A DNA stretch of 64,000 nt from the NCBI GenBank assembly GCA_022571365.1, contig JACZXZ010000007.1, positions 3,366-67,365 on the forward strand, written 5' to 3'. This stretch comes from Pseudomonadota bacterium (lineage in GTDB: Bacteria > Pseudomonadota > Alphaproteobacteria > G022571365). This document shows, in pieces, positions 18,025 through 60,506 of this stretch (the first letter of the stretch is position 1; each line of letters opens with the position of its first letter). The notes beneath the pieces were generated by a model. That model had not been told where the DNA came from. It searched no databases and saw only the letters and a list, made by a program, of their open reading frames with translations. Both the position numbers and the translations under genes were made by a program.

Positions 18025-19014
18025 TCAGCGCCACGTCTTCTCGTAGGCCCCGGCGGTCTCGCGCTGACCTTCCATGACCGCGTGGAGCGCCGGGGCGGGC
18101 ACCGGATCGCCTCTCGCCGCCGCATCCACGGCCCGGCGCAAGGCGGCGACCACCTGAGCGACATAGGCGCGGCCGCGCTGGCGGCCCTCGATCTTCAGCG
18201 CCGTCACGCCGGCCGCTATCAGTTCCGGCAACACGGAAATGGCGCTCAAGGAGGTGGGTTCCTCAAACAGGTAGGCCGCGCGCCCCCGGGTCACGAAGCG
18301 CCCCTTGCACAGGGTCGGGTAGCTCGCCGCCTCGCCGTCGGCGAAGGCGTTGATCGTGAAGTCGCCCAGCCTGCAGACCAACCTGCCACCTTGCTCGATG
18401 TACCGTACATGGCTCGCGGGCGAGCACACCCCGTTCATATTAGGCGACTGGCCGGTGACGTACGACGACAGGGCACAGCGCCCCTCGGCCATGCAGCCCA
18501 CGCTGCCGAAGATGAACACCTCGGTCTCCACCGGAATCTGTTTATTGAGCGCCGCAATCTCGGCGACGGTGAAGATCCGCGGCAGCACAACCCGCTTGAT
18601 GTTGAACTCCCGATGGTAGAAGCAGATGGCCTCGGCGTTGGAGGCCGAAGCCTGCACCGACAGGTGGCGGCGCAGCTCCGGGTGTTTGCGGGCTACATAG
18701 TCGATGAGGCCGATGTCGGCCAGGATAACGGCATCGGCCCCCAAACGGGCGGCGTCATCCACGGCACGGTGCCAGGGGCCAAGGTCGCCGGCGCGGGGAA
18801 AAGTGTTGATGGCGACCAGGATCTTGACCCCGCGGTCGTGGGCGTAGGAGAGCCCTTCTTTGAGCTCGTCCCGGGTGAAATTGAGCCCCGGAAAGTTGCG
18901 GGCATTGGTCTCGTCGCGGAAACCCAAGTAGACCGAGTCGCCGCCGGCGTCCACGGCGGCCTTGAGCGCGGCCGGCGTTCCTGCCGGGCACACCAGCTCC
19001 AGGGCTCTGTTCAT
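18025..19014 (-). CDS. ubiU: U32-family protein UbiU (O2-independent ubiquinone biosynthesis)
   Basis: 329 aa, aligns along its length with E. coli YhbU/UbiU (ELVCPAG, NARNFPGLNF, SVQASASN, EGRCALSSY, YPTLCKGR, KIEGRQR). Confidence 0.8.
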   Translation of the reverse strand: MNRALELVCPAGTPAALKAAVDAGGDSVYLGFRDETNARNFPGLNFTRDELKEGLSYAHDRGVKILVAINTFPRAGDLGPWHRAVDDAARLGADAVILADIGLIDYVARKHPELRRHLSVQASASNAEAICFYHREFNIKRVVLPRIFTVAEIAALNKQIPVETEVFIFGSVGCMAEGRCALSSYVTGQSPNMNGVCSPASHVRYIEQGGRLVCRLGDFTINAFADGEAASYPTLCKGRFVTRGRAAYLFEEPTSLSAISVLPELIAAGVTALKIEGRQRGRAYVAQVVAALRRAVDAAARGDPVPAPALHAVMEGQRETAGAYEKTWR

Positions 19015-19679
19015 GGCCGCTTCGCCCGGGCCCGACGGCTTCGCCGGCGCGGGGGGCTCAAGCGCTCTTCCAGACCGTCCAGCTCGGCGGCCAGCGCGTC
19101 GCTGCGCATGATCGCCGGGGCGATCGTCGCCGCGCGCAGGGTTTCCAGGTCCTCGGCCGCGCGGGCGAACACCGCGCCGGCGCCCCGGACCAGAAAGCGG
19201 GCCGGCCTCGCCAACGGACCGAGGAAGGAGAGCAGGTCGGCCACGATGTCGATCTCCGCGCCGTCCACGGCGTTGCGGAGCGCCACCACGGCCTCGGTCT
19301 CGCCCTCGATCACCAGATCGCGGGAAAAGAACAGGGCGTCCCCGTCTATACGCCCTTCCAGGAGATCAATGAGGCTCAGGAGGGGAGCGCGGATCGTGGC
19401 CGTCGCCTCGACCGCTCCCGCGCCGCCGAGGGCGACGAGGCTGGGCGCCTCCGCGTCGGGGTGCAACAGGAAGACGAAGGGCAGGTCCACCGGATCGATG
19501 AGGAACAAGGTATCGCCCAGCTCCGCCAGCCGCTCGAACATGGCGGGGTGGCGGCGGTGTATGATCGTCATCGCGACGGTCAGCGCCGGCTGCAACAAGA
19601 CCGGCGGCATCGGCCGTAGCGCCAAGCCGACCAGCAACACCGGGGACAAAGGCGGCGTCTGGCGTCGTGGCTCGCTCAT
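19011..19679 (-). CDS. ubiT: SCP2-domain protein UbiT
   Basis: Start taken at MSEPRRQ... (ATG 19679-19677 on - strand). The 19011..19841 ORF extends further upstream. Contains the LFFSRDLVIEGETEAVVALRNAVD block matching E. coli YhbT/UbiT. Stop overlaps ubiU start (ATGA). Confidence 0.65.
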   Translation of the reverse strand: MSEPRRQTPPLSPVLLVGLALRPMPPVLLQPALTVAMTIIHRRHPAMFERLAELGDTLFLIDPVDLPFVFLLHPDAEAPSLVALGGAGAVEATATIRAPLLSLIDLLEGRIDGDALFFSRDLVIEGETEAVVALRNAVDGAEIDIVADLLSFLGPLARPARFLVRGAGAVFARAAEDLETLRAATIAPAIMRSDALAAELDGLEERLSPPRRRSRRARAKRP

Positions 19680-19762
19680 CGCGAAGTATGGGCGCGGTAT
19701 GGGCCTTTTGGCGGCGTCGTCCTGGCGTGCCAGACGCTCCGTCCGCCGTCTTTCAGGGGCAT

Positions 19763-19776
19763 TGGCCAAGATCAAA
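19763..19776. promoter_or_regulatory. FNR/FixK-like box TTGGCCAAGATCAA (TTGg-N6-TCAA core, one mismatch)
   Basis: 84 nt upstream of ubiT start. Shares the flanking context GGGGCATTG...AGATCAA with the pntAA box. Confidence 0.4.
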
Positions 19777-19888
19777 TAACCTCCGACCACCGGCCGGTGC
19801 CGCTGGGGCTGCGCCCCCGACGCGGGTGCCGTGGCCCGCATCTCGCGGCGCCGGGCGGGGAAGCGGCGAGGCGTGAAGCACGGCCAGC

Positions 19889-20545
19889 TCAGCCGACGGC
19901 TTGATCAGGGTAAGCTAGCTCATGCCGGGCTCTCCATTCGTCCTTGACGTAGTTGACGATTATCAATTTCCGCACGCCGTCGATGGGGCGCTTGTGGAAT
20001 CCGTGCCAAGTGTTCGTTCCCGGAATAAAGATGAGCCCGCAGTTGAACTCGTAGGGCACGGTGGCGACGAGGTTCAACTTTTCGTCCAGTATATCGGTGC
20101 CCCATTTTTCCGACCCCGGGTCCGTCGACAGGTATACCAGCATGGTAAACAGCTTCGCGCTTATGTCGGTATGGGGCTCCAGCCAGAAACCATCCGTGTC
20201 CTGGCAGTACTCGATGCGGAGAAAACTCCCCTTCAGCGCCACCCCGCAGGTGCTTTCTAATTTCCTGATCGTTGTTCCGTTTTGCAGCGCCTTCGCTACC
20301 TCGCGGCAGACATCGAAACGGCGGCGGTTCTCCACCGAGAAAAAAGTCCTCGTGTCGTTGTTTGTCTCCCGTTTTCCCTTGGTGTCCTTGATGCGAGGCG
20401 GATCAAGAGGAAGTGCCTTTACTGCATTGCAGACATCCTCCGGGAACACGTCTCCGAGAAACCAATGCCGGTACGGCTTGGTCCCGGCCCGGCCGTGATC
20501 TAAACAAGCAAAGAACTTGTCCATTATCGCGGCGGTATCGATCAC
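19889..20545 (-). CDS. putative Fe(II)/2-oxoglutarate-dependent oxygenase (218 aa)
   Basis: HxD...H candidate iron ligands (WLEPHTD ... WHGFH). GC ~55%. Domain family not firmly assigned. Confidence 0.5.
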   Translation of the reverse strand: MIDTAAIMDKFFACLDHGRAGTKPYRHWFLGDVFPEDVCNAVKALPLDPPRIKDTKGKRETNNDTRTFFSVENRRRFDVCREVAKALQNGTTIRKLESTCGVALKGSFLRIEYCQDTDGFWLEPHTDISAKLFTMLVYLSTDPGSEKWGTDILDEKLNLVATVPYEFNCGLIFIPGTNTWHGFHKRPIDGVRKLIIVNYVKDEWRARHELAYPDQAVG

Positions 20546-20710: not shown

Positions 20711-21469
20711 CTAGACGCGGTAGACGTACTCCTTGCCCGGTTCGCGTTCGATGTCTGGTGGAAAGCTCTTGCGCTTGTCGGCGTGGTACCGGGCCGAGTG
20801 GTCGCCCTCCGACAGACGGTTGTAAGTGACGAAATAGAGGCGCCGGATCTTGTCGCTCATGTTGGGCTCCGAAGCGTGCGGCGCGTAGGAATCGAAGAAC
20901 GCCACGTCGCCCGGCTTGGTCGGGCAGGAAACGAACTCCATTCCTTCCATGTCCTCCTCGGTCAGCGGCTCCCACTCGCGGAACAGCCCCCGCTTGTGGT
21001 GCCCGGCCACCATCTTGAGGCACCCGTTTTCGACGGTCGCCTCGTCGATGCAGACCAAGACGCTGATGTAGTAACTGCCGTAATTCCACCAGCCGGCCTG
21101 GGAATCCTGATGCGGCTTGAAGCCGTCACCCCCGGGCATCTTGAAATTGATCTTCTCCTTGAACAGCACGGTCTCCTCGCCCAGAAGCTGACCCACCGGG
21201 GCTTTCAGCACCGTGCTCAGCTCGGCGAAACCCGAATGGAACGGCGAGATATTTTCAATGCGGTTAATCAGCTCCTTGCTGGGATCGAGCAGGCTTTGCT
21301 CGTGATAGACCCAATGCCTGCCGGGTTCCTCCGGGAGCGCGGCCAGTTCCCGTGTCCAGGCTTCGATCTTCTGCATTTCCGCCGCGTCAAACACAGCCCG
21401 AACGACGACGTATCCATCCCTGTGAAAATTGCTGATCTGCTGATCCGTAAGCACCAGCGTTGTTAGCAT
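20711..21469 (-). CDS. phytanoyl-CoA dioxygenase (PhyH) family Fe(II)/2OG oxygenase
   Basis: 252 aa with PhyH-like motifs (KPHQDSQ HxD, distal YAPHAS). Confidence 0.75.
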   Translation of the reverse strand: MLTTLVLTDQQISNFHRDGYVVVRAVFDAAEMQKIEAWTRELAALPEEPGRHWVYHEQSLLDPSKELINRIENISPFHSGFAELSTVLKAPVGQLLGEETVLFKEKINFKMPGGDGFKPHQDSQAGWWNYGSYYISVLVCIDEATVENGCLKMVAGHHKRGLFREWEPLTEEDMEGMEFVSCPTKPGDVAFFDSYAPHASEPNMSDKIRRLYFVTYNRLSEGDHSARYHADKRKSFPPDIEREPGKEYVYRV

Positions 21470-21598
21470 CGGAGGCCTCCCTTCGTGGCACTCGACGGTT
21501 GGAAGAAACGGCTCTCGCGGGGGCGGTCGGCCATGATCGTGACCCCGCGCGAGTCAGACTGGCCCGAGCGATGCTAACAGGCATTTCCCGTATGTCGT

Positions 21599-21612
21599 TT
21601 GATCTAGATCAA
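21599..21612. promoter_or_regulatory. perfect FNR/FixK box TTGATCTAGATCAA (fully palindromic)
   Basis: Read directly. 130 nt upstream of the PhyH-family gene start (- strand) and 545 nt upstream of the cytochrome gene. Confidence 0.5.
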
Positions 21613-22156
21613 TTTCCCGCTACCACGCCGGGGGATCGGCAACCGCGTGACGTGCTTTGTGTTACGCACCACCTCCGCCCATCGCCCCGCAGACGTGGTG
21701 GCGACTGGCTTCGAACGTTTTCCGCAGGGTCCCGGTGGTCTATCCGGCTCGCGGCCGGCTATTGCCGGTGACCGGTCGCCGGCCCAATACCAGCACCGAC
21801 CGGGAAGGGACGCTTCAGGGATTTCCTCGCTTCCTCCCTTTATGGGGGTTCTTTGATGATTGGGGCTCTTTGATGCCAAGATTATCGGCGTGCAACACGG
21901 CTATGAAGTATAATATTCATTCAATTAATTATGCACTTAGTAAGAGTTATACACTTAGTAATAATGTATCTAGAATTTAGATGCTAATGATTATAATTAT
22001 CACTTCCAATCAAAGAATCACTCCGTAACTTTTTCGTGAAACCGACTCGTATCTGTTGCTGGCAACCTTGAGCCAACGTACTTTAGCTTTGTGTGGTTCT
22101 TTGGCATCTCTTTCCTCCGAGCCACGTCTATTTACTTATTTACTGCGGAGGTAAAC

Positions 22157-23371
22157 ATGAGGGGTCGCGCAGGCAAATGGGCGGCATTGACCGTAACCGG
22201 GCTGGCTGCCGTTGCCTTGGCCGTCCTCCTTGCCATCGGGTTTTCCCGGTTCTCCTCAGGGGGGGTGAGCGGGGCTTCCATGCCGAGCGACTACTGGCGT
22301 CTGCCGCTTGCGCCCCAGGGCGAGGCACCGGACCATTGGAGCGCGCCCGAGCGGTCTCTGGCGCCGGAGTCCTGCGCCGAGTGTCACGCAGACCAGTACG
22401 AGCAGTGGCGGACCTCGCTCCATGCCGGCGCCTTTTCACCAGGGTTGGTGGGACAGTTGCTCACCTACGACGCCGGCCAGATTTCAGGCTGTATGCAATG
22501 CCACGCGCCCCTCGCCGAACAACCGCGGGATTTTAAGGCCGCGCGCGAGAAGGGAGTCGCTCACCTCGCCACGGGTCAAGGGCTGGCCGCCGCAGGTGTG
22601 GCCTGCGGGGCCTGCCACTTGCGCGGCCACCGCCGCTTTGGCCCGCCCCAGCGAGACACCGGCGCGACCGGCCAGAGTGATACCGACGCCCCGCATGGGG
22701 GAGTGTACCGGGCGGCGTGGTTCGAGGAATCCGAATTCTGCGCCGCCTGTCACCAATTTCCGCAGGACTACGCGGTCAACGGCAAGCCACTGGAGAACAC
22801 TGTCGTCGAGTGGCAAGAGAGTCCTTTCGCCGCCGAGGGGGTCACCTGCCAGACCTGTCACATGCCTGATCGCAGGCATCTGTGGCGCGGCATCCACGAT
22901 CCCGATATGGTCGCCAAGGGGCTCACGGCCCGGTTTTCCGCCACCGCCGAAGGCGCCCGCTTCACCCTGACCAACAGCGGTGTTGGGCACGCCTTTCCCA
23001 CCTACGTCACGCCCCGGGTGGAGATGCGCGCGGTGGCGTTGGATGACGCGGGACGGCCGGTGCCGGCCACTGCCGCCCGCCACGTTATCCAGCGCATCGT
23101 CTCCTCCACGGCCCGAGGATGGATCGAGCTCGCCGACAGCCGCCTTCTGCCTGGTGAGGAGGCGAGCCTCTTCCTGCCTTGGCAAGGCTACGCCAAGGCG
23201 CGGCTGTGGTTGGAAGTCAAGCCCGACGACTACTATGACAATCAGGTCTACGATGTTTTGTTGGCCGGGTTGGCGCCGGATTCCCCCTCGGCTATCCTGA
23301 TTGCCCGCGCCGATCGCATCGCGCGGGCCAGCAGCTACCGTCTGTTCGTCACCGAGATCGAGAGACCCTAG
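22157..23371 (+). CDS. pentaheme c-type cytochrome with N-terminal signal anchor
   Basis: SD GGAGGT 5 nt before ATG 22157. Five CxxCH motifs (CAECH, CMQCH, CGACH, CAACH, CQTCH). Hydrophobic N-terminus. Confidence 0.8.
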   Translation: MRGRAGKWAALTVTGLAAVALAVLLAIGFSRFSSGGVSGASMPSDYWRLPLAPQGEAPDHWSAPERSLAPESCAECHADQYEQWRTSLHAGAFSPGLVGQLLTYDAGQISGCMQCHAPLAEQPRDFKAAREKGVAHLATGQGLAAAGVACGACHLRGHRRFGPPQRDTGATGQSDTDAPHGGVYRAAWFEESEFCAACHQFPQDYAVNGKPLENTVVEWQESPFAAEGVTCQTCHMPDRRHLWRGIHDPDMVAKGLTARFSATAEGARFTLTNSGVGHAFPTYVTPRVEMRAVALDDAGRPVPATAARHVIQRIVSSTARGWIELADSRLLPGEEASLFLPWQGYAKARLWLEVKPDDYYDNQVYDVLLAGLAPDSPSAILIARADRIARASSYRLFVTEIERP

Positions 23372-23553: not shown

Positions 23554-24612
23554 TTATGGCCTCAGATGTAGCAGTCCCCGTCGATCGGCCCGGACAAGGA
23601 TGACCAGCGCGTAGCCGCACTGAAACAGGAGAAATGGCGCGAAGGCGAGCGCCCGGCGGTCGGGTGGAAGGTGGATGAGCCACAGCGCGCCAAGCCCCTG
23701 GAGGATCGCGATCAGGTAGTGATAGAGGCTGACCTGCACGTGGCTCAATCCCAGTCGGTTGGCGAGCTGATAGAGGTGGGAGCGGTGGGCCGCCGCGATC
23801 TTTTCGCGATGGATCAGACGACGGAGAAAGGTGAGGGTGGTGTCATAGATAAAGTGAAAAAACAGCAATGGCATCACCAGGAAGGACGTATGAGCGCTCT
23901 CGTATTGTGACGCGATAACCGCGAGGACTGCGAAAACAAACCCCAGAAACTGGCTTCCAACATCGCTCATAAAGACTCTTGCCTGGGGAAAATTAAAAAT
24001 CAGGAAACCTAGAGTGCTGAACAATATTATGAAGCACAGTGCGGCGACGAATGCGTTTCCATCCAGGAATGTAACAATGCCAAAAAACAACGCGACGATG
24101 ACCGCCGTGCCACCCGCGAGCCCGTTCAGCCCGTCCATGAAATTGAAGGCGTTGGTCAGCCCGATGATCCAGAGCGCGGTCAAGGGGTAGCCGAACCACC
24201 CCAGGGCCAGAGTGCCGAAATACGGGAACGAGAGAGTCTCGAGGACAAGGCCTGAGGCAAGAATCACGGCCGTGGCCAGAATCTGAGAGGCCAGTTTGAC
24301 GGCAAAGCTGAATTTGCGGATGTCGTCGACCAGGGACACCGCGGCGATCGCCAGGGCCGCCAAGGCGAACCCAGCCATGTAGGGTTCCGGGATGCGGGCC
24401 GCGCCGCCAAACCCGTACAGGGCGGCGTAGCCCAAGAAGAAGCTCACAACAATCGCCACCCCGCCACCCTTGGCCACCGGCTGGTCGTGCGACGACCGGT
24501 GGGTTGGCAGATCCATGATCTTCCAGTGCGTCATGATCCAAGTCGCAAAGGCGGAGATCGCAAACAAAGCTAAGGAAAACGGTATGTATATAAATAGGTT
24601 ATAAGTATTCAT
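23554..24612 (-). CDS. glycosyltransferase family 4 polyprenyl-phosphate sugar-1-phosphate transferase (WecA/MraY-like)
   Basis: Start chosen at MNTYNLFIY (ATG 24612-24610). Multi-TM protein with conserved VDDIRKF and NAFNFMDGLNGLA motifs. Confidence 0.8.
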   Translation of the reverse strand: MNTYNLFIYIPFSLALFAISAFATWIMTHWKIMDLPTHRSSHDQPVAKGGGVAIVVSFFLGYAALYGFGGAARIPEPYMAGFALAALAIAAVSLVDDIRKFSFAVKLASQILATAVILASGLVLETLSFPYFGTLALGWFGYPLTALWIIGLTNAFNFMDGLNGLAGGTAVIVALFFGIVTFLDGNAFVAALCFIILFSTLGFLIFNFPQARVFMSDVGSQFLGFVFAVLAVIASQYESAHTSFLVMPLLFFHFIYDTTLTFLRRLIHREKIAAAHRSHLYQLANRLGLSHVQVSLYHYLIAILQGLGALWLIHLPPDRRALAFAPFLLFQCGYALVILVRADRRGLLHLRP

Positions 24613-24772
24613 ATTAAGTTCTCGTACGCGAACTTGGATGGTCTGGCCGCGCTCGATATTAGCCCTTTGATGGTGCCGATCCAACACCCGCTCGGCTTCG
24701 AGGCTGCGGGGCGCGGCCGCGTCGTCCCTCTCTCCGGCGGATCGGGCGCGGGGGCAGGGGCCGCCGTCACCC

Positions 24773-24853
24773 GCCGTCACCCGCCGCGCGCAAGTTCATG
24801 CCGTCACCCGCCGCGCGCGAGTTCATGCCGTCACCCGCCGCGCGCAAGCTCAT
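24773..24853. repeat. 27-bp tandem repeat x3 (gccgtcacccgccgcgcgcaagttcat) plus 10-bp partial copies upstream
   Basis: Copies at 24773-24799, 24800-24826 and 24827-24853, 1-2 mismatches each. Third copy contains the rlmB stop and last six codons. Confidence 0.85.
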
Positions 24854-26068: not shown

Positions 26069-27307
26069 AGCGATGGCGAAGAAAGCGAAATTTGAGCGGA
26101 CGAAGCCGCACTGCAATGTTGGGACGATAGGCCATGTAGATCATGGCAAGACGACGTTGACGTCGGCGATTACGAAGCTGTTGGCGGCGACGGGTGGGGC
26201 TGAGTTCATCCCGTTTGGGGAGATTGACAAGGCGCCGGAGGAGAAGGCTCGGGGGATCACGATTGCCACGGCGCATGTGGAATACGAGACCGAGCGGCGG
26301 CATTACGCCCATGTGGACTGTCCGGGTCACGCCGATTATGTGAAGAACATGATCACGGGGGCGGCGCAGATGGACGGGGCGGTTTTGGTGGTTTCGGCGG
26401 CGGACGGTCCGATGCCGCAGACCCGGGAGCACATTCTGTTGGCGCGCCAGGTGGGGGTTCCGGCGATTGTTGTTTATCTGAACAAGGTGGACACGGTTGA
26501 CGACCCGGAGCTGTTGGAATTGGTTGAGCTTGAGATCCGGGAGCTGCTCACCTCCTATGATTTTCCGGGGGACGATATACCGGTTGTGAAGGGCTCGGCG
26601 CTGGCGGCGTTGGAAGGTGGGGACAAGACTCTGGGCGAGGACTCGGTGGTGGCGTTGTTGGCGGCGATTGACGACTACATTCCCCAGCCGGACCGTGCGA
26701 AGGACCGGCCGTTTTTGATGCCGATTGAGGATGTGTTCTCGATCTCGGGCCGGGGCACGGTTGTGACCGGCCGGATCGAGCGCGGGGTTGTGAAGGTTGG
26801 CGACGAGGTTGAGATTATCGGCATCCGGGAGACCCAGAAGACGATCTGTACCGGGGTGGAGATGTTCCGCAAGCTTCTCGACCGGGGGGAGGCGGGGGAC
26901 AATGTTGGCTGTCTTCTCCGGGGCGTGGGCCGGGACGAGGTGGAGCGGGGCCAGGTGTTGGCGGCGCCGGGGTCGATCACGCCGCACACCAAGTTCACGT
27001 GCGAGGCCTATATTCTGACCAAGGAGGAGGGCGGGCGGCACACGCCGTTTTTCACCAACTACCGGCCCCAGTTCTACTTCCGCACCACGGACGTGACCGG
27101 GCGGGTTGCCCTGCCGGAGGGGACGGAGATGGTGATGCCGGGGGACAACGTGTCGATGGAGGTTGAGCTGATCGCCCCGATTGCGATGGACGAAGGGCTC
27201 CGCTTCGCGATCCGCGAGGGCGGGCGCACGGTCGGGGCCGGCGTCGTCGCCTCCATCATCGAGTAGAACCTCGAATAGCGGGAAAAGGTTAAAAGGTTAA
27301 AGGGCGA
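26069..27307 (+). repeat. 1239-bp near-identical duplicate of 42763..44001 (tuf plus 41 bp of 3' flank)
   Basis: Single mismatch (26090 vs 42784). Identity extends 4 bp upstream of ATG and 41 bp past the stop (aacctcgaatagcgggaaaaggttaaaaggttaaagggcga). Confidence 0.9.
26073..27266 (+). CDS. tuf: elongation factor Tu (copy 1)
   Basis: 397-aa EF-Tu ([18 protein letters not shown]). Confidence 0.97.
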
Positions 27308-42766: not shown

Positions 42767-43960
42767 ATGGCGAAGAAAGCGAAGTTTGAGCGGACGAAGC
42801 CGCACTGCAATGTTGGGACGATAGGCCATGTAGATCATGGCAAGACGACGTTGACGTCGGCGATTACGAAGCTGTTGGCGGCGACGGGTGGGGCTGAGTT
42901 CATCCCGTTTGGGGAGATTGACAAGGCGCCGGAGGAGAAGGCTCGGGGGATCACGATTGCCACGGCGCATGTGGAATACGAGACCGAGCGGCGGCATTAC
43001 GCCCATGTGGACTGTCCGGGTCACGCCGATTATGTGAAGAACATGATCACGGGGGCGGCGCAGATGGACGGGGCGGTTTTGGTGGTTTCGGCGGCGGACG
43101 GTCCGATGCCGCAGACCCGGGAGCACATTCTGTTGGCGCGCCAGGTGGGGGTTCCGGCGATTGTTGTTTATCTGAACAAGGTGGACACGGTTGACGACCC
43201 GGAGCTGTTGGAATTGGTTGAGCTTGAGATCCGGGAGCTGCTCACCTCCTATGATTTTCCGGGGGACGATATACCGGTTGTGAAGGGCTCGGCGCTGGCG
43301 GCGTTGGAAGGTGGGGACAAGACTCTGGGCGAGGACTCGGTGGTGGCGTTGTTGGCGGCGATTGACGACTACATTCCCCAGCCGGACCGTGCGAAGGACC
43401 GGCCGTTTTTGATGCCGATTGAGGATGTGTTCTCGATCTCGGGCCGGGGCACGGTTGTGACCGGCCGGATCGAGCGCGGGGTTGTGAAGGTTGGCGACGA
43501 GGTTGAGATTATCGGCATCCGGGAGACCCAGAAGACGATCTGTACCGGGGTGGAGATGTTCCGCAAGCTTCTCGACCGGGGGGAGGCGGGGGACAATGTT
43601 GGCTGTCTTCTCCGGGGCGTGGGCCGGGACGAGGTGGAGCGGGGCCAGGTGTTGGCGGCGCCGGGGTCGATCACGCCGCACACCAAGTTCACGTGCGAGG
43701 CCTATATTCTGACCAAGGAGGAGGGCGGGCGGCACACGCCGTTTTTCACCAACTACCGGCCCCAGTTCTACTTCCGCACCACGGACGTGACCGGGCGGGT
43801 TGCCCTGCCGGAGGGGACGGAGATGGTGATGCCGGGGGACAACGTGTCGATGGAGGTTGAGCTGATCGCCCCGATTGCGATGGACGAAGGGCTCCGCTTC
43901 GCGATCCGCGAGGGCGGGCGCACGGTCGGGGCCGGCGTCGTCGCCTCCATCATCGAGTAG
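42767..43960 (+). CDS. tuf: elongation factor Tu (copy 2)
   Basis: Protein identical to copy 1. Nucleotide differs at one synonymous site (42784 g vs 26090 a). Confidence 0.97.
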
Positions 43961-59620: not shown

Positions 59621-59831
59621 TCCCTCCCTCGTTCCTACTCTAGCACACCGCCCCGCCCATCGCGCAGCCCCCGGTATTGGGCAAAGACGCGGGTGGCGCG
59701 TCCGGCTAAGCTTGGGTCGGGTTCCGGATTGATTGGGAGCCAAACCGCTGAGGGCCGTTCCTGACCCTTTGCGGACATTCAACGTGGCGCGGTTCTATGT
59801 CCCCAAATGACCCGAAGGCGACTTTGGCCAG

Positions 59832-60326
59832 CTAGAGAAGTCTCTTTGTAAGAATCACTTCGTAGTCTTCAAAGCCATAATTCTTGTATGCTTGGCGCGC
59901 TGTCTTGTTCTTGCTTTTGATGCAGACGGTCATCCAGTGTAGCCCTTTTGCCAGCATGGTACGTTCGAACTCTCGCATTAGGGCTGTCCCGATGCCTTGT
60001 CGGCGCCGTTCGCTCTGGACAAAAAGGTCAGAGATATAGGCACTTCGATCGAACTCTGAAGCGACTAGACAGTCCCCCGCTTTGTGGGCGTAACCTGCCA
60101 GCACTCCGACGATTTCTCTGTTTGCCTCAGCGACGAGAAAGACACCCTTGTCGGCGGTCAGCCGGTGGCGGAGATCGGACAGGTAGTCTTCCCAGACATC
60201 GCGTCCAGGCCTGAGGGGATATCCGACAATTTCGTGCTCAAAGTCTTGAATGTTCGCCACGGCCTGGCCCAAAGCGGTCCAATCCGCATCTTCTCCAGTT
60301 CGAATGGTAAATGTCGCGTGCTTCAT
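59832..60326 (-). CDS. GNAT family N-acetyltransferase
   Basis: 164 aa with acetyl-CoA binding motif A (VQSERRRQGIGTALM). GC ~52%, well below surroundings. Confidence 0.8.
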   Translation of the reverse strand: MKHATFTIRTGEDADWTALGQAVANIQDFEHEIVGYPLRPGRDVWEDYLSDLRHRLTADKGVFLVAEANREIVGVLAGYAHKAGDCLVASEFDRSAYISDLFVQSERRRQGIGTALMREFERTMLAKGLHWMTVCIKSKNKTARQAYKNYGFEDYEVILTKRLL

Positions 60327-60506
60327 GATGTGGAATATATATGGCGTGCGTCACGTAGAACAGGTTACGACCGTTCATGGCTATGAGCTGACATTGCGCC
60401 GCGACCCGGCCAGCGTCCGCTGATGGCTATGAGCGGACCTTCGACAAACTGAGACACTACCGTCGGCTGCCTCTTGTTTTATCGGGTGGTACACTATGTT
60501 AAGGCC

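Follow-up and report, generated by a model that had tools for sequence, protein, structure and literature searches.

What is a short, strikingly AT-rich tract doing directly upstream of a cytochrome gene in an otherwise GC-rich genome: does it serve as a strongly regulated promoter, perhaps one kept silent in the way foreign DNA is, or is it the scar of a foreign insertion that now drives the gene? These were the options that a sequence-only reading had left standing for a locus in the 64 kb stretch of contig JACZXZ010000007.1 analyzed here (this whole stretch is referred to as the window, and all coordinates are window positions), where the last ~260 nt of the 687-nt gap between a PhyH-type dioxygenase gene and the gene for a pentahaem c-type cytochrome form an AT-rich island. 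Judging by sequence comparison, the island is probably a native, regulated promoter-operator together with the start of a ~150-nt leader of the pentahaem cytochrome gene, the iron regulator Fur being a likely candidate for its control. As a kind of feature it is ordinary, although strikingly and unusually extreme in form. The locus is laid out as follows:

20711-21469, minus strand: PhyH-type dioxygenase gene, divergent from the cytochrome gene
21470-21879, no strand: GC-rich rest of the gap, ~410 nt at 63% GC
21880-22140, no strand: AT-rich island, 36.0% GC overall
22157-23371, plus strand: pentahaem c-type cytochrome gene, 404 amino acids, with a signal-anchor N-terminus and five CxxCH motifs

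The compositional anomaly itself is confirmed. The sequence-only reading had put the island at roughly 30% GC in surroundings of ~68%; the strong dip stands, whereas both figures had to be corrected, to 36.0% for the island as a whole and 65.2% for the window (computed over the 64 kb), with sub-stretches that are lower still (26.0% at 21900-22030 and 21.8% in the core at 21900-22000). The windowed GC and dinucleotide check that had been proposed at the time, run on the window, gives the island both the lowest GC and the highest TpA density: the 261-nt GC minimum of the 64 kb (35.2%) starts at 21900 and lies ~6 standard deviations under the mean (65.2%, standard deviation 5.0), and the core, with 21 TpA steps per 131 nt, is the window maximum (window-wide 2.0 +/- 1.9). 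The composition is also unusual in comparison with other intergenic regions, the 80-nt GC minimum being 0.21 in the island and 0.40 in the next lowest of ~34 approximate intergenic regions (ribosomal-operon promoters included), whose median is ~0.56. Segments with a 100-nt GC below 42% number three in the window, namely the island, which goes down to 21%, and two others at 37-39%. The window's other two AT dips are situated in the transferase region downstream of the cytochrome gene (23931-24090 and 24511-24670), and the second-lowest-GC intergenic stretch (59783-60493, 711 nt, 80-nt minimum 0.40) lies between two minus-strand genes.

In some 70 nt in the middle of the island, the following elements are found:

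21968-21982, no strand: palindrome ATCTA-GAATT-TAGAT (ATCTAGAATTTAGAT), over the -35 position of the TATAAT promoter
21983-22001, minus strand: Fur-box-like 19-mer GATAATTATAATCATTAGC, 17/19 against the consensus GATAATGATAATCATTATC
21988-22002: 7-1-7 palindrome TGATTATAATTATCA, with 6/7 pairs matching, containing TATAAT
21992-21997, plus strand: perfect -10 hexamer TATAAT, with a predicted start at ~22004 and a leader of ~153 nt
21999-22006 and 22017-22024, plus strand: direct repeats ATCACTTC and ATCACTCC, 18 nt apart
22026-22039, no strand: TAACTTTTTCGTGA, a one-mismatch copy of TCAC-N6-GTGA, candidate operator

The TATAAT hexamer, the palindrome around it and both pairs of direct repeats named in the sequence-only reading are all present at the positions given. 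A Fur box lying on a -10 hexamer is the textbook layout for repression, and the Fur-like site does overlap the perfect TATAAT, 160 nt upstream of the ATG, the hexamer being the presumed active -10. Its 7-1-7 core matches the TGATAATnATTATCA motif at 13/14, and the scores seem hard to reach by composition, as none of 2000 dinucleotide shuffles of the island attain 17/19 and a single one of 2000 attains 13/14. The site is also the best Fur-box match in the 64 kb, and a score of at least 16 was returned solely by orthologous copies of it when 1.01 Mb (176 loci, including low-GC genomes and AT-rich gaps) were scanned. For alphaproteobacteria outside the Rhizobiales and Rhodobacteraceae, including the Rhodospirillales, a Fur-type box resembling AATGATAATnATTATCATT has been described (PMC1698941), which 21983-22001 matches at 16/18 positions by hand count, with the proviso that the host's own Fur motif may differ from either consensus. 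The site scores 17/19 in L001-L006, L171 and L172 (designations of this form denote the compared loci), 15/19 in L174-L176 and 13/14 on the core in L167, and close orthologues reach 14-16/18 against the 18-position consensus, again by hand count. Likeness to known Fur-repressed sigma-70 promoters, in which a 19-bp box or 7-1-7 arrangement lies over the -10/-35 (e.g., the Fur-alpha box of Rhodospirillales, Sphingomonadales and Caulobacter; PMC1698941), thus extends to both match scores, to centring on a perfect -10, to retention in close orthologues and to a host group whose main iron regulator is reported to be Fur and not RirA/Irr. The differences are that the gene here encodes a multihaem cytochrome and not an uptake system, that the AT-rich tract is far larger and holds other repeats, and that the site is absent from the promoters of distant homologues. 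That Fur specifically regulates this promoter is best worded as a serious candidate explanation, a shade short of probable.

How old is the island? The same cytochrome protein is encoded on nine metagenome contigs, and all six of those fetched carry the island with few single-nucleotide polymorphisms and one 2-nt indel. It is likewise present in six further contigs of related strains, 12 contigs of the species being counted as carriers besides L167. L171, L172, L174, L175 and L176, whose cytochromes are ~96-97% identical (11-14 amino acid differences), have it, and so does L167, a 92%-identical orthologue, the island being collinear throughout. Being near-identical in six independent contigs and present in six related ones, the island is not an assembly artefact, and its occurrence in L167 and in all sampled strains but one indicates that it is ancestral to the clade. 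The locus as a whole is syntenic across the strains and partly so in L168, which is 69-71% identical.

The one exception is L173 (GCA_044345325.1, contig JAZHCF012256976.1; compared span L173:740-1009), whose cytochrome differs at 16 amino acids and which lacks the following segment:

21661-22087: segment missing from L173, 427 nt, spanning the whole island and bounded by the direct repeat GCTTTGTGT at 21654-62 and 22086-94

The L173 junction, GCTTTGT-TTTGTGTG, is imprecise and lies in a short direct repeat, GCTTTGT(GT). Because the island is there in L167, which is more distant, and in every other strain, its absence from L173 reads as a secondary microhomology deletion and not as an empty insertion site. 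The cytochrome open reading frame (ORF) of L173 is intact, with an unremarkable ratio of nonsynonymous to synonymous polymorphism (pN/pS), i.e., relaxed selection on the L173 cytochrome after the loss of the island was not detected, and the PhyH gene of this contig seems fragmented.

Within the island, TATAAT at 21992-97 is retained in all orthologues but L174 (TATGAT); the 21 nt at 21964-21984 are invariant in 9/9 aligned orthologues; and the 37-nt block 22004-22040, which holds ATCAAAGAA, ATCACTCC and the TCAC-N6-GTGA-like element, is invariant too, TAACTTTTTCGTGA being so in close orthologues. The ATCACTCC copy of the direct repeat (22017-22024) accordingly does not vary, whereas the ATCACTTC copy does so at 22003. 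Noncoding positions 21957-22143 are ~95% identical between the window and L167, versus 88.6% for 4-fold degenerate sites (binomial P = 0.001), and this pairwise comparison would suggest constraint, which substitution rates do not establish. The stronger argument for it is that the whole clade keeps this DNA at 22-26% GC while the genome around it has 65%.

A second line of evidence comes from far more distant relatives. Many alphaproteobacterial loci combine the cytochrome gene with one for a small secreted protein that has a signal peptide and 6-20 NPC(A) repeats and is rich in K, H and M. This NPC module is also found fused to cytochrome P460 and, in other matches, to CCP/MauG- and SoxA/TsdA-type haem domains, while the NPC-repeat protein itself matches nothing in Pfam, NCBIfam or the literature, its homologues being labelled "hypothetical" without exception. 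The partner gene is divergent in L009, L010, L013, L016, L020, L169 and L170 and co-directional in L031, L088, L116, L011, L015 and L087. Where it is divergent, the gap is AT-rich (80-nt GC minima of 0.15-0.38, median 0.31, in loci of 54-69% GC), whereas loci with a co-directional partner (Bradyrhizobium and others) or with none show an ordinary dip, with median minima of 0.56 and 0.50, respectively (Mann-Whitney P = 4e-5 for divergent versus other arrangements, the lineages not being fully independent). The window holds no NPC-repeat gene at 1-64000. Divergent cytochrome/NPC-repeat control regions (L009, L010, L169, L170, L089, L110, L020 and the Emcibacter type) resemble the island in position relative to the cytochrome start, in the GC drop and in a TCAC-N6-GTGA-type element, and those of L009 and L089 have, by eye, a TATAAT in an AT-rich context as the island does. 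They are unlike it in that no significant alignment is obtained, that the window lacks the partner and that the Fur-like box is confined to the clade of the window. A likeness to L009 seen by eye (ATTATAATTA...TATCACTTC) is not claimed as homology, the alignment not being significant.

Position and composition apart, the TCAC-N6-GTGA element is the one thing that the island shares with these regions. Exact copies lie upstream of the cytochrome genes in L010, L170, L169 and L168 (0.07 expected), and with one mismatch allowed, the motif is found in 11/30 lineages, the window included (1.8 expected, a count that 0/300 shuffles reach); the upstream regions that show it, with the right half TT[C/T]GTGA, include those of L110, L025, L020, L099 and L013 besides the four just named. 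As the motif was first spotted by eye, its statistics are in part post hoc. When palindromes with 4-nt arms were scanned without bias, TCAC-N6-GTGA came out at the top among motifs that are not GC-only, and a scan for exact palindromes with 5-nt arms across the homologues gave no dominant motif.

Put together, the -10 hexamer in a Fur-like site, the retained palindromes and repeats, the position and the AT-rich counterparts in distant lineages all favor the "strongly regulated promoter" half of the sequence-only reading. RNA polymerase would start at ~22004 from TATAAT, and iron-loaded Fur, or another Fur-family protein, at 21983-22001 would cover the -10 and shut the promoter, and with Fur as repressor the cytochrome would be made when iron is scarce. 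A second regulator may act at the TCAC-N6-GTGA-like site 22026-22039 that recurs across the family, and the leader may add translational control by pairing an anti-Shine-Dalgarno sequence with the Shine-Dalgarno sequence. The AT-richness would persist on account of the AT-rich protein-binding sites and the easily melted DNA that fill the segment, and not because it is recent foreign DNA. The probable ancestor of the island is the bidirectional, AT-rich control region that is found in relatives, the partner NPC-repeat gene presumably having been lost in this lineage and the control region kept.

Several observations weigh against this interpretation. The -35 at 16-18 nt from TATAAT is poor, with at most 3/6 matches in the sequence. 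The islands of distant relatives (homologues at 73% identity or less) have no significant Fur match, the site being clade-specific, and local alignment of the island with these distant islands is not significant (best z = 1.9). One would not expect iron-loaded Fur to repress a protein rich in haem, unless that protein has a part in iron acquisition, and no fur gene was found within the 64 kb, a result that is uninformative for the whole genome. In the eight-strain comparison, variable columns make up 9-11% of the noncoding core versus 14% at 4-fold sites, a difference that does not reach significance (P = 0.2-0.4) and tempers the pairwise result. Finally, L173 is a natural allele that keeps an intact gene with no island upstream of it, and the island may, given L173, be dispensable.

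The gene downstream bears on the alternatives as well. The "pentaheme" label given to it at first sight agrees with a count of five CxxCH motifs, and its nearest solved structure is the pentahaem c552 5ze8 (E = 1e-5). The start codon, ATG at 22157, is preceded by the ribosome-binding GGAGG at 22147-51. The composition of the gene is host-like and native, at 67% GC and a third-position GC content (GC3) of 0.79 versus 0.81-0.86 in its neighbours, and the protein belongs to a large family spread over Alphaproteobacteria, Zetaproteobacteria, Gallionellaceae, Gemmatimonadota and others. A tRNA-Tyr/Gly-tuf-...-rpoBC cluster lies ~4 kb from the locus, and its RpoB is 80% identical to those of the nearest named relatives (Rhodospirillaceae SYSU D60014, Hypericibacter and Dongiaceae), from which it follows that the host is an uncultured Rhodospirillales-like alphaproteobacterium.

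The best surviving alternative, although an unlikely one, is that the island is a target of a nucleoid-associated silencer of the MucR/Ros type, which would keep the cytochrome gene off for as long as no counter-silencer acts; such silencing would agree with a promoter and could coexist with Fur. In alphaproteobacteria, MucR has been described as a xenogeneic silencer that acts on AT-rich DNA (PMC9410896, PMC5881533), the host is an alphaproteobacterium, and no part of the window is lower in GC or denser in TpA steps than the island. It shares with DNA bound by xenogeneic silencers (MucR in alphaproteobacteria and H-NS, Lsr2, MvaT and Rok elsewhere; PMC9410896) a GC content ~30-40 points below that of the genome, a high TpA density and a promoter location. 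However, it is AT-rich for just ~130-250 nt and is purely intergenic, and the adjacent gene, native in composition and vertically kept in the clade, leaves nothing "xenogeneic" to be silenced. No MucR/Ros gene was found in the window, a result that is again uninformative for the genome.

It is improbable that the region is mainly an RNA-level device, i.e., that a structured leader at 22003-22156 controls translation or stability (through sequestration of the Shine-Dalgarno sequence by CCUCCG, an 11-bp long-range stem or a thermometer- or riboswitch-like element), with the AT-rich DNA upstream being just a strong promoter. The leader elements in question are:

22011-21 and 22093-103, plus strand: 11-nt inverted repeat CAAAGAATCAC / GTGGTTCTTTG, a possible long-range leader stem
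22114-19 and 22146-51, plus strand: anti-Shine-Dalgarno CCTCCG and Shine-Dalgarno CGGAGG, flanking the TATTTACT repeats
22129-44, plus strand: 8-nt repeat TATTTACT x2, with four copies in L167

Both the pair of Shine-Dalgarno and anti-Shine-Dalgarno sequences and the inverted repeat are thus present, and 22004-22040 is invariant. The inverted repeat encloses the palindrome GTTGC-TG-GCAAC (22055-22066), whose centre carries T/C variation at 22060 (GTTGC-YG-GCAAC); it is perfectly complementary in L004, L171, L174-176 and L167, and the G of the window at 22096 would give a U.G pair, the downstream arm (22093-103) being GTG(G/A)TTCTTTG across strains. The substitutions at 22096 (G/A) and 22115 (C/T) would keep wobble pairing, the latter, a C-to-T in L171, by retaining a U.G pair in the anti-Shine-Dalgarno sequence, and such substitutions lend weak support to the predicted pairing. 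Set against this, variation is too scarce for covariation and DNA operators are another reading of these repeats. Rfam gave no match on 21400-22300 at E <= 1, and three tRNAs elsewhere were all that it returned for the whole window at the gathering threshold. The leader folds no better than its shuffles (z = -0.2 and +0.6), which speaks against a leader-based component of the promoter reading too.

Somewhat less probable still is that the island is a relic, the left-over divergent control region of the lost NPC-repeat gene, drifting neutrally and liable to slippage and deletion while the cytochrome gene is transcribed from elsewhere. Relatives do have the divergent partner that the window lacks, three tandem repeats in and around the island vary in copy number, L173 deleted the island and kept the ORF, and the multi-strain substitution rate is not significantly different from that of 4-fold sites. 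Neutral DNA in a 65% GC genome should not, however, hold 22-26% GC out to the 92% orthologue, and the Fur-like site, TATAAT (TATGAT in L174) and the 21-nt and 37-nt blocks are kept in the island-bearing orthologues; the pairwise test against L167 indicates constraint as well.

The other half of the sequence-only reading, a scar or remnant of a foreign or mobile insertion (an element like a miniature inverted-repeat transposable element (MITE) or an insertion sequence (IS), or a promoter-carrying cassette) that drives the cytochrome gene, has fared far worse and is now very unlikely. What it can call upon is that the 427-nt island-bearing segment is a strain indel with the 9-nt direct repeat GCTTTGTGT on its flanks, that an inverted repeat of 9 nt, TTCTTTGAT / ATCAAAGAA, which is internal to the segment (21849 and 22009), has 151 nt of the core between its arms, and that neighbours such as orf218 and the GT4 gene are lower in GC. 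With MITEs and ISs carrying outward promoters, the segment shares its being a discrete AT-rich indel with a short flanking direct repeat directly upstream of a gene; it is unlike them in having no boundary terminal inverted repeats, other copies or transposase remnant, and in a phylogenetic pattern that is that of a deletion. The outgroup L167 and all other strains have the island, so that its absence from L173 is derived, and the L173 junction is imprecise. The 9-nt repeat, which occurs twice in the window as a target-site duplication would, is at chance level (~1.5 such repeats are expected in 900 nt, an estimate) and is not conserved, its copies differing in L167, L171 and L174-176. No inverted repeats are found at the ends of the 427-nt indel (21661... 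/ ...22087), BLAST of the island against the window and ~1 Mb of loci finds orthologous copies alone and no second copy, plasmid and phage searches gave no similarity, and analogous AT-rich islands occupy the same position in distant lineages.

That the island itself codes for something, be it a small protein, a small RNA or an iteron-plus-AT-rich element resembling a replication origin, is hardly credible, as the ATG-initiated 25-codon ORF at 21904-21981 is thrown out of frame in L002 and L171 by the 2-nt indel, has its region taken over by repeats in L167 and lacks a Shine-Dalgarno sequence, as no terminator precedes the cytochrome start, and as the superficial resemblance of 17-nt direct repeats beside an AT-rich stretch to iterons and an unwinding element comes with no DnaA box (at least 8/9), no CtrA box TTAA-N7-TTAA and no rep gene nearby (the neighbours are a dioxygenase and a cytochrome gene, in a locus beside the ribosomal-protein/rpoBC cluster).

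Returning to the proposed promoter-operator, the remainder of its anatomy is more fluid, with two further repeat arrays at and near the upstream edge:

21842-21875, plus strand: tandem 17-nt repeats x2, ATGGGGGTTCTTTGATG / ATTGGGGCTCTTTGATG, the upstream edge of the island, copy number strain-variable
21929-43 and 21947-61, plus strand: 15-nt direct repeats TTATGCACTTAGTAA / TTATACACTTAGTAA, enclosing CACTTAGTAA at 21934-43 and 21952-61

The 17-mer is present in two copies in the window and in five in L176, and its TTCTTTGAT core recurs inverted at 22009-22017. The region 21929-21961 is variable and slippage-prone, with the 2-nt indel and substitutions in L002 and L171, and the 8-nt TTAGTAA unit found there has two copies in the window and at least four in L167. 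A second TATAAT, at 21909-21914, is strain-polymorphic and lies in a variable block. The palindrome at 21968-82 holds an alternative -10 candidate, TAGAAT (21971-21976), which figures in a listed promoter prediction, TATACA-17-TAGAAT, whose -35 (TATACA) is not conserved. The copy-number differences of the three tandem repeats may tune expression or be simple slippage. Contingency or phase-variable promoters likewise have short tandem repeats that vary between strains (here 2 vs 5, 2 vs at least 4 and 2 vs 4), but the units here are 8-17 nt long and few in number, unlike long homopolymer or tetramer tracts. Other regulatory assignments were tried and rejected: a sigma-54 reading of TGGCAACCTTGAGCC has a GG-GC spacing that is one base short and no scan match, and its TGGCA is CGGCA in several strains; and none of the iron control element (ICE; Irr), Zur, FNR/FixK, IHF or extended -10 motifs fits, as judged by hand against consensus sequences.

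Upstream of the island, the GC-rich rest of the gap (21470-21879) shows no codon-position, coding or pseudogene signal and no homology to any fetched locus. The syntenic relative L168 (69-71% identity) has, at L168:1294-2201, a radical-SAM gene and a 77-amino-acid ORF with a twin-arginine translocation (TAT) signal between the PhyH and cytochrome genes, a spot where the window has solely these 410 nt of GC-rich noncoding DNA. A perfect 11-nt inverted repeat, TGTTAGCATCG / CGATGCTAACA, is found at 21461-21471 and 21569-21579, one arm lying over the PhyH start codon. Further out, the neighbourhood of the 218-amino-acid ORF and the transferase gene is compositionally patchy: the former (19889-20545) belongs to no family and has 56% GC and a GC3 of 0.71, and the latter (23554-24780), a GT4/WecA-like transferase gene, has 57% GC, both being lower in GC than the window. 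Just upstream of the locus (18025-19841), a U32-peptidase gene overlaps head to tail with a gene for an SCP2-domain protein, a pair which we take to resemble the UbiU/V-UbiT set for oxygen-independent ubiquinone synthesis. The ribosomal-protein/rpoBC region contains two 397-amino-acid ORFs (26073-27266 and 42767-43960), the first of which is EF-Tu and the second a probable second tuf copy, given its length and its place after a fusA-sized ORF.

What, then, would follow for the organism and for the cytochrome family? For one thing, DNA whose composition departs extremely from that of a GC-rich genome need not be foreign but can be a regulatory module of some age that selection has kept, which calls for caution in genomic-island scans. 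A bolder extension, to which we would give little credence at present, is that the island is the surviving half of a conserved, unusually AT-rich bidirectional module, through which many Alphaproteobacteria would co-regulate the cytochrome and the NPC protein by way of a TCAC-N6-GTGA regulator, and that it has been rewired to Fur in this lineage; the cytochrome would then be a periplasmic or extracytoplasmic redox protein induced by iron starvation, e.g., a ferric reductase or a component of iron acquisition, with repeat copy number and whole-island deletion serving as strain-level expression switches. The locus also offers a testable handle on a widespread, uncharacterised family of pentahaem cytochromes, in the form of a predicted Fur box over the -10, a palindrome that recurs across the family and a natural allele from which the putative promoter is deleted, and the comparison has uncovered a conserved partnership with an unannotated secreted NPC-repeat protein. 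If the link to Fur is true, the cytochrome would have a role under iron limitation.

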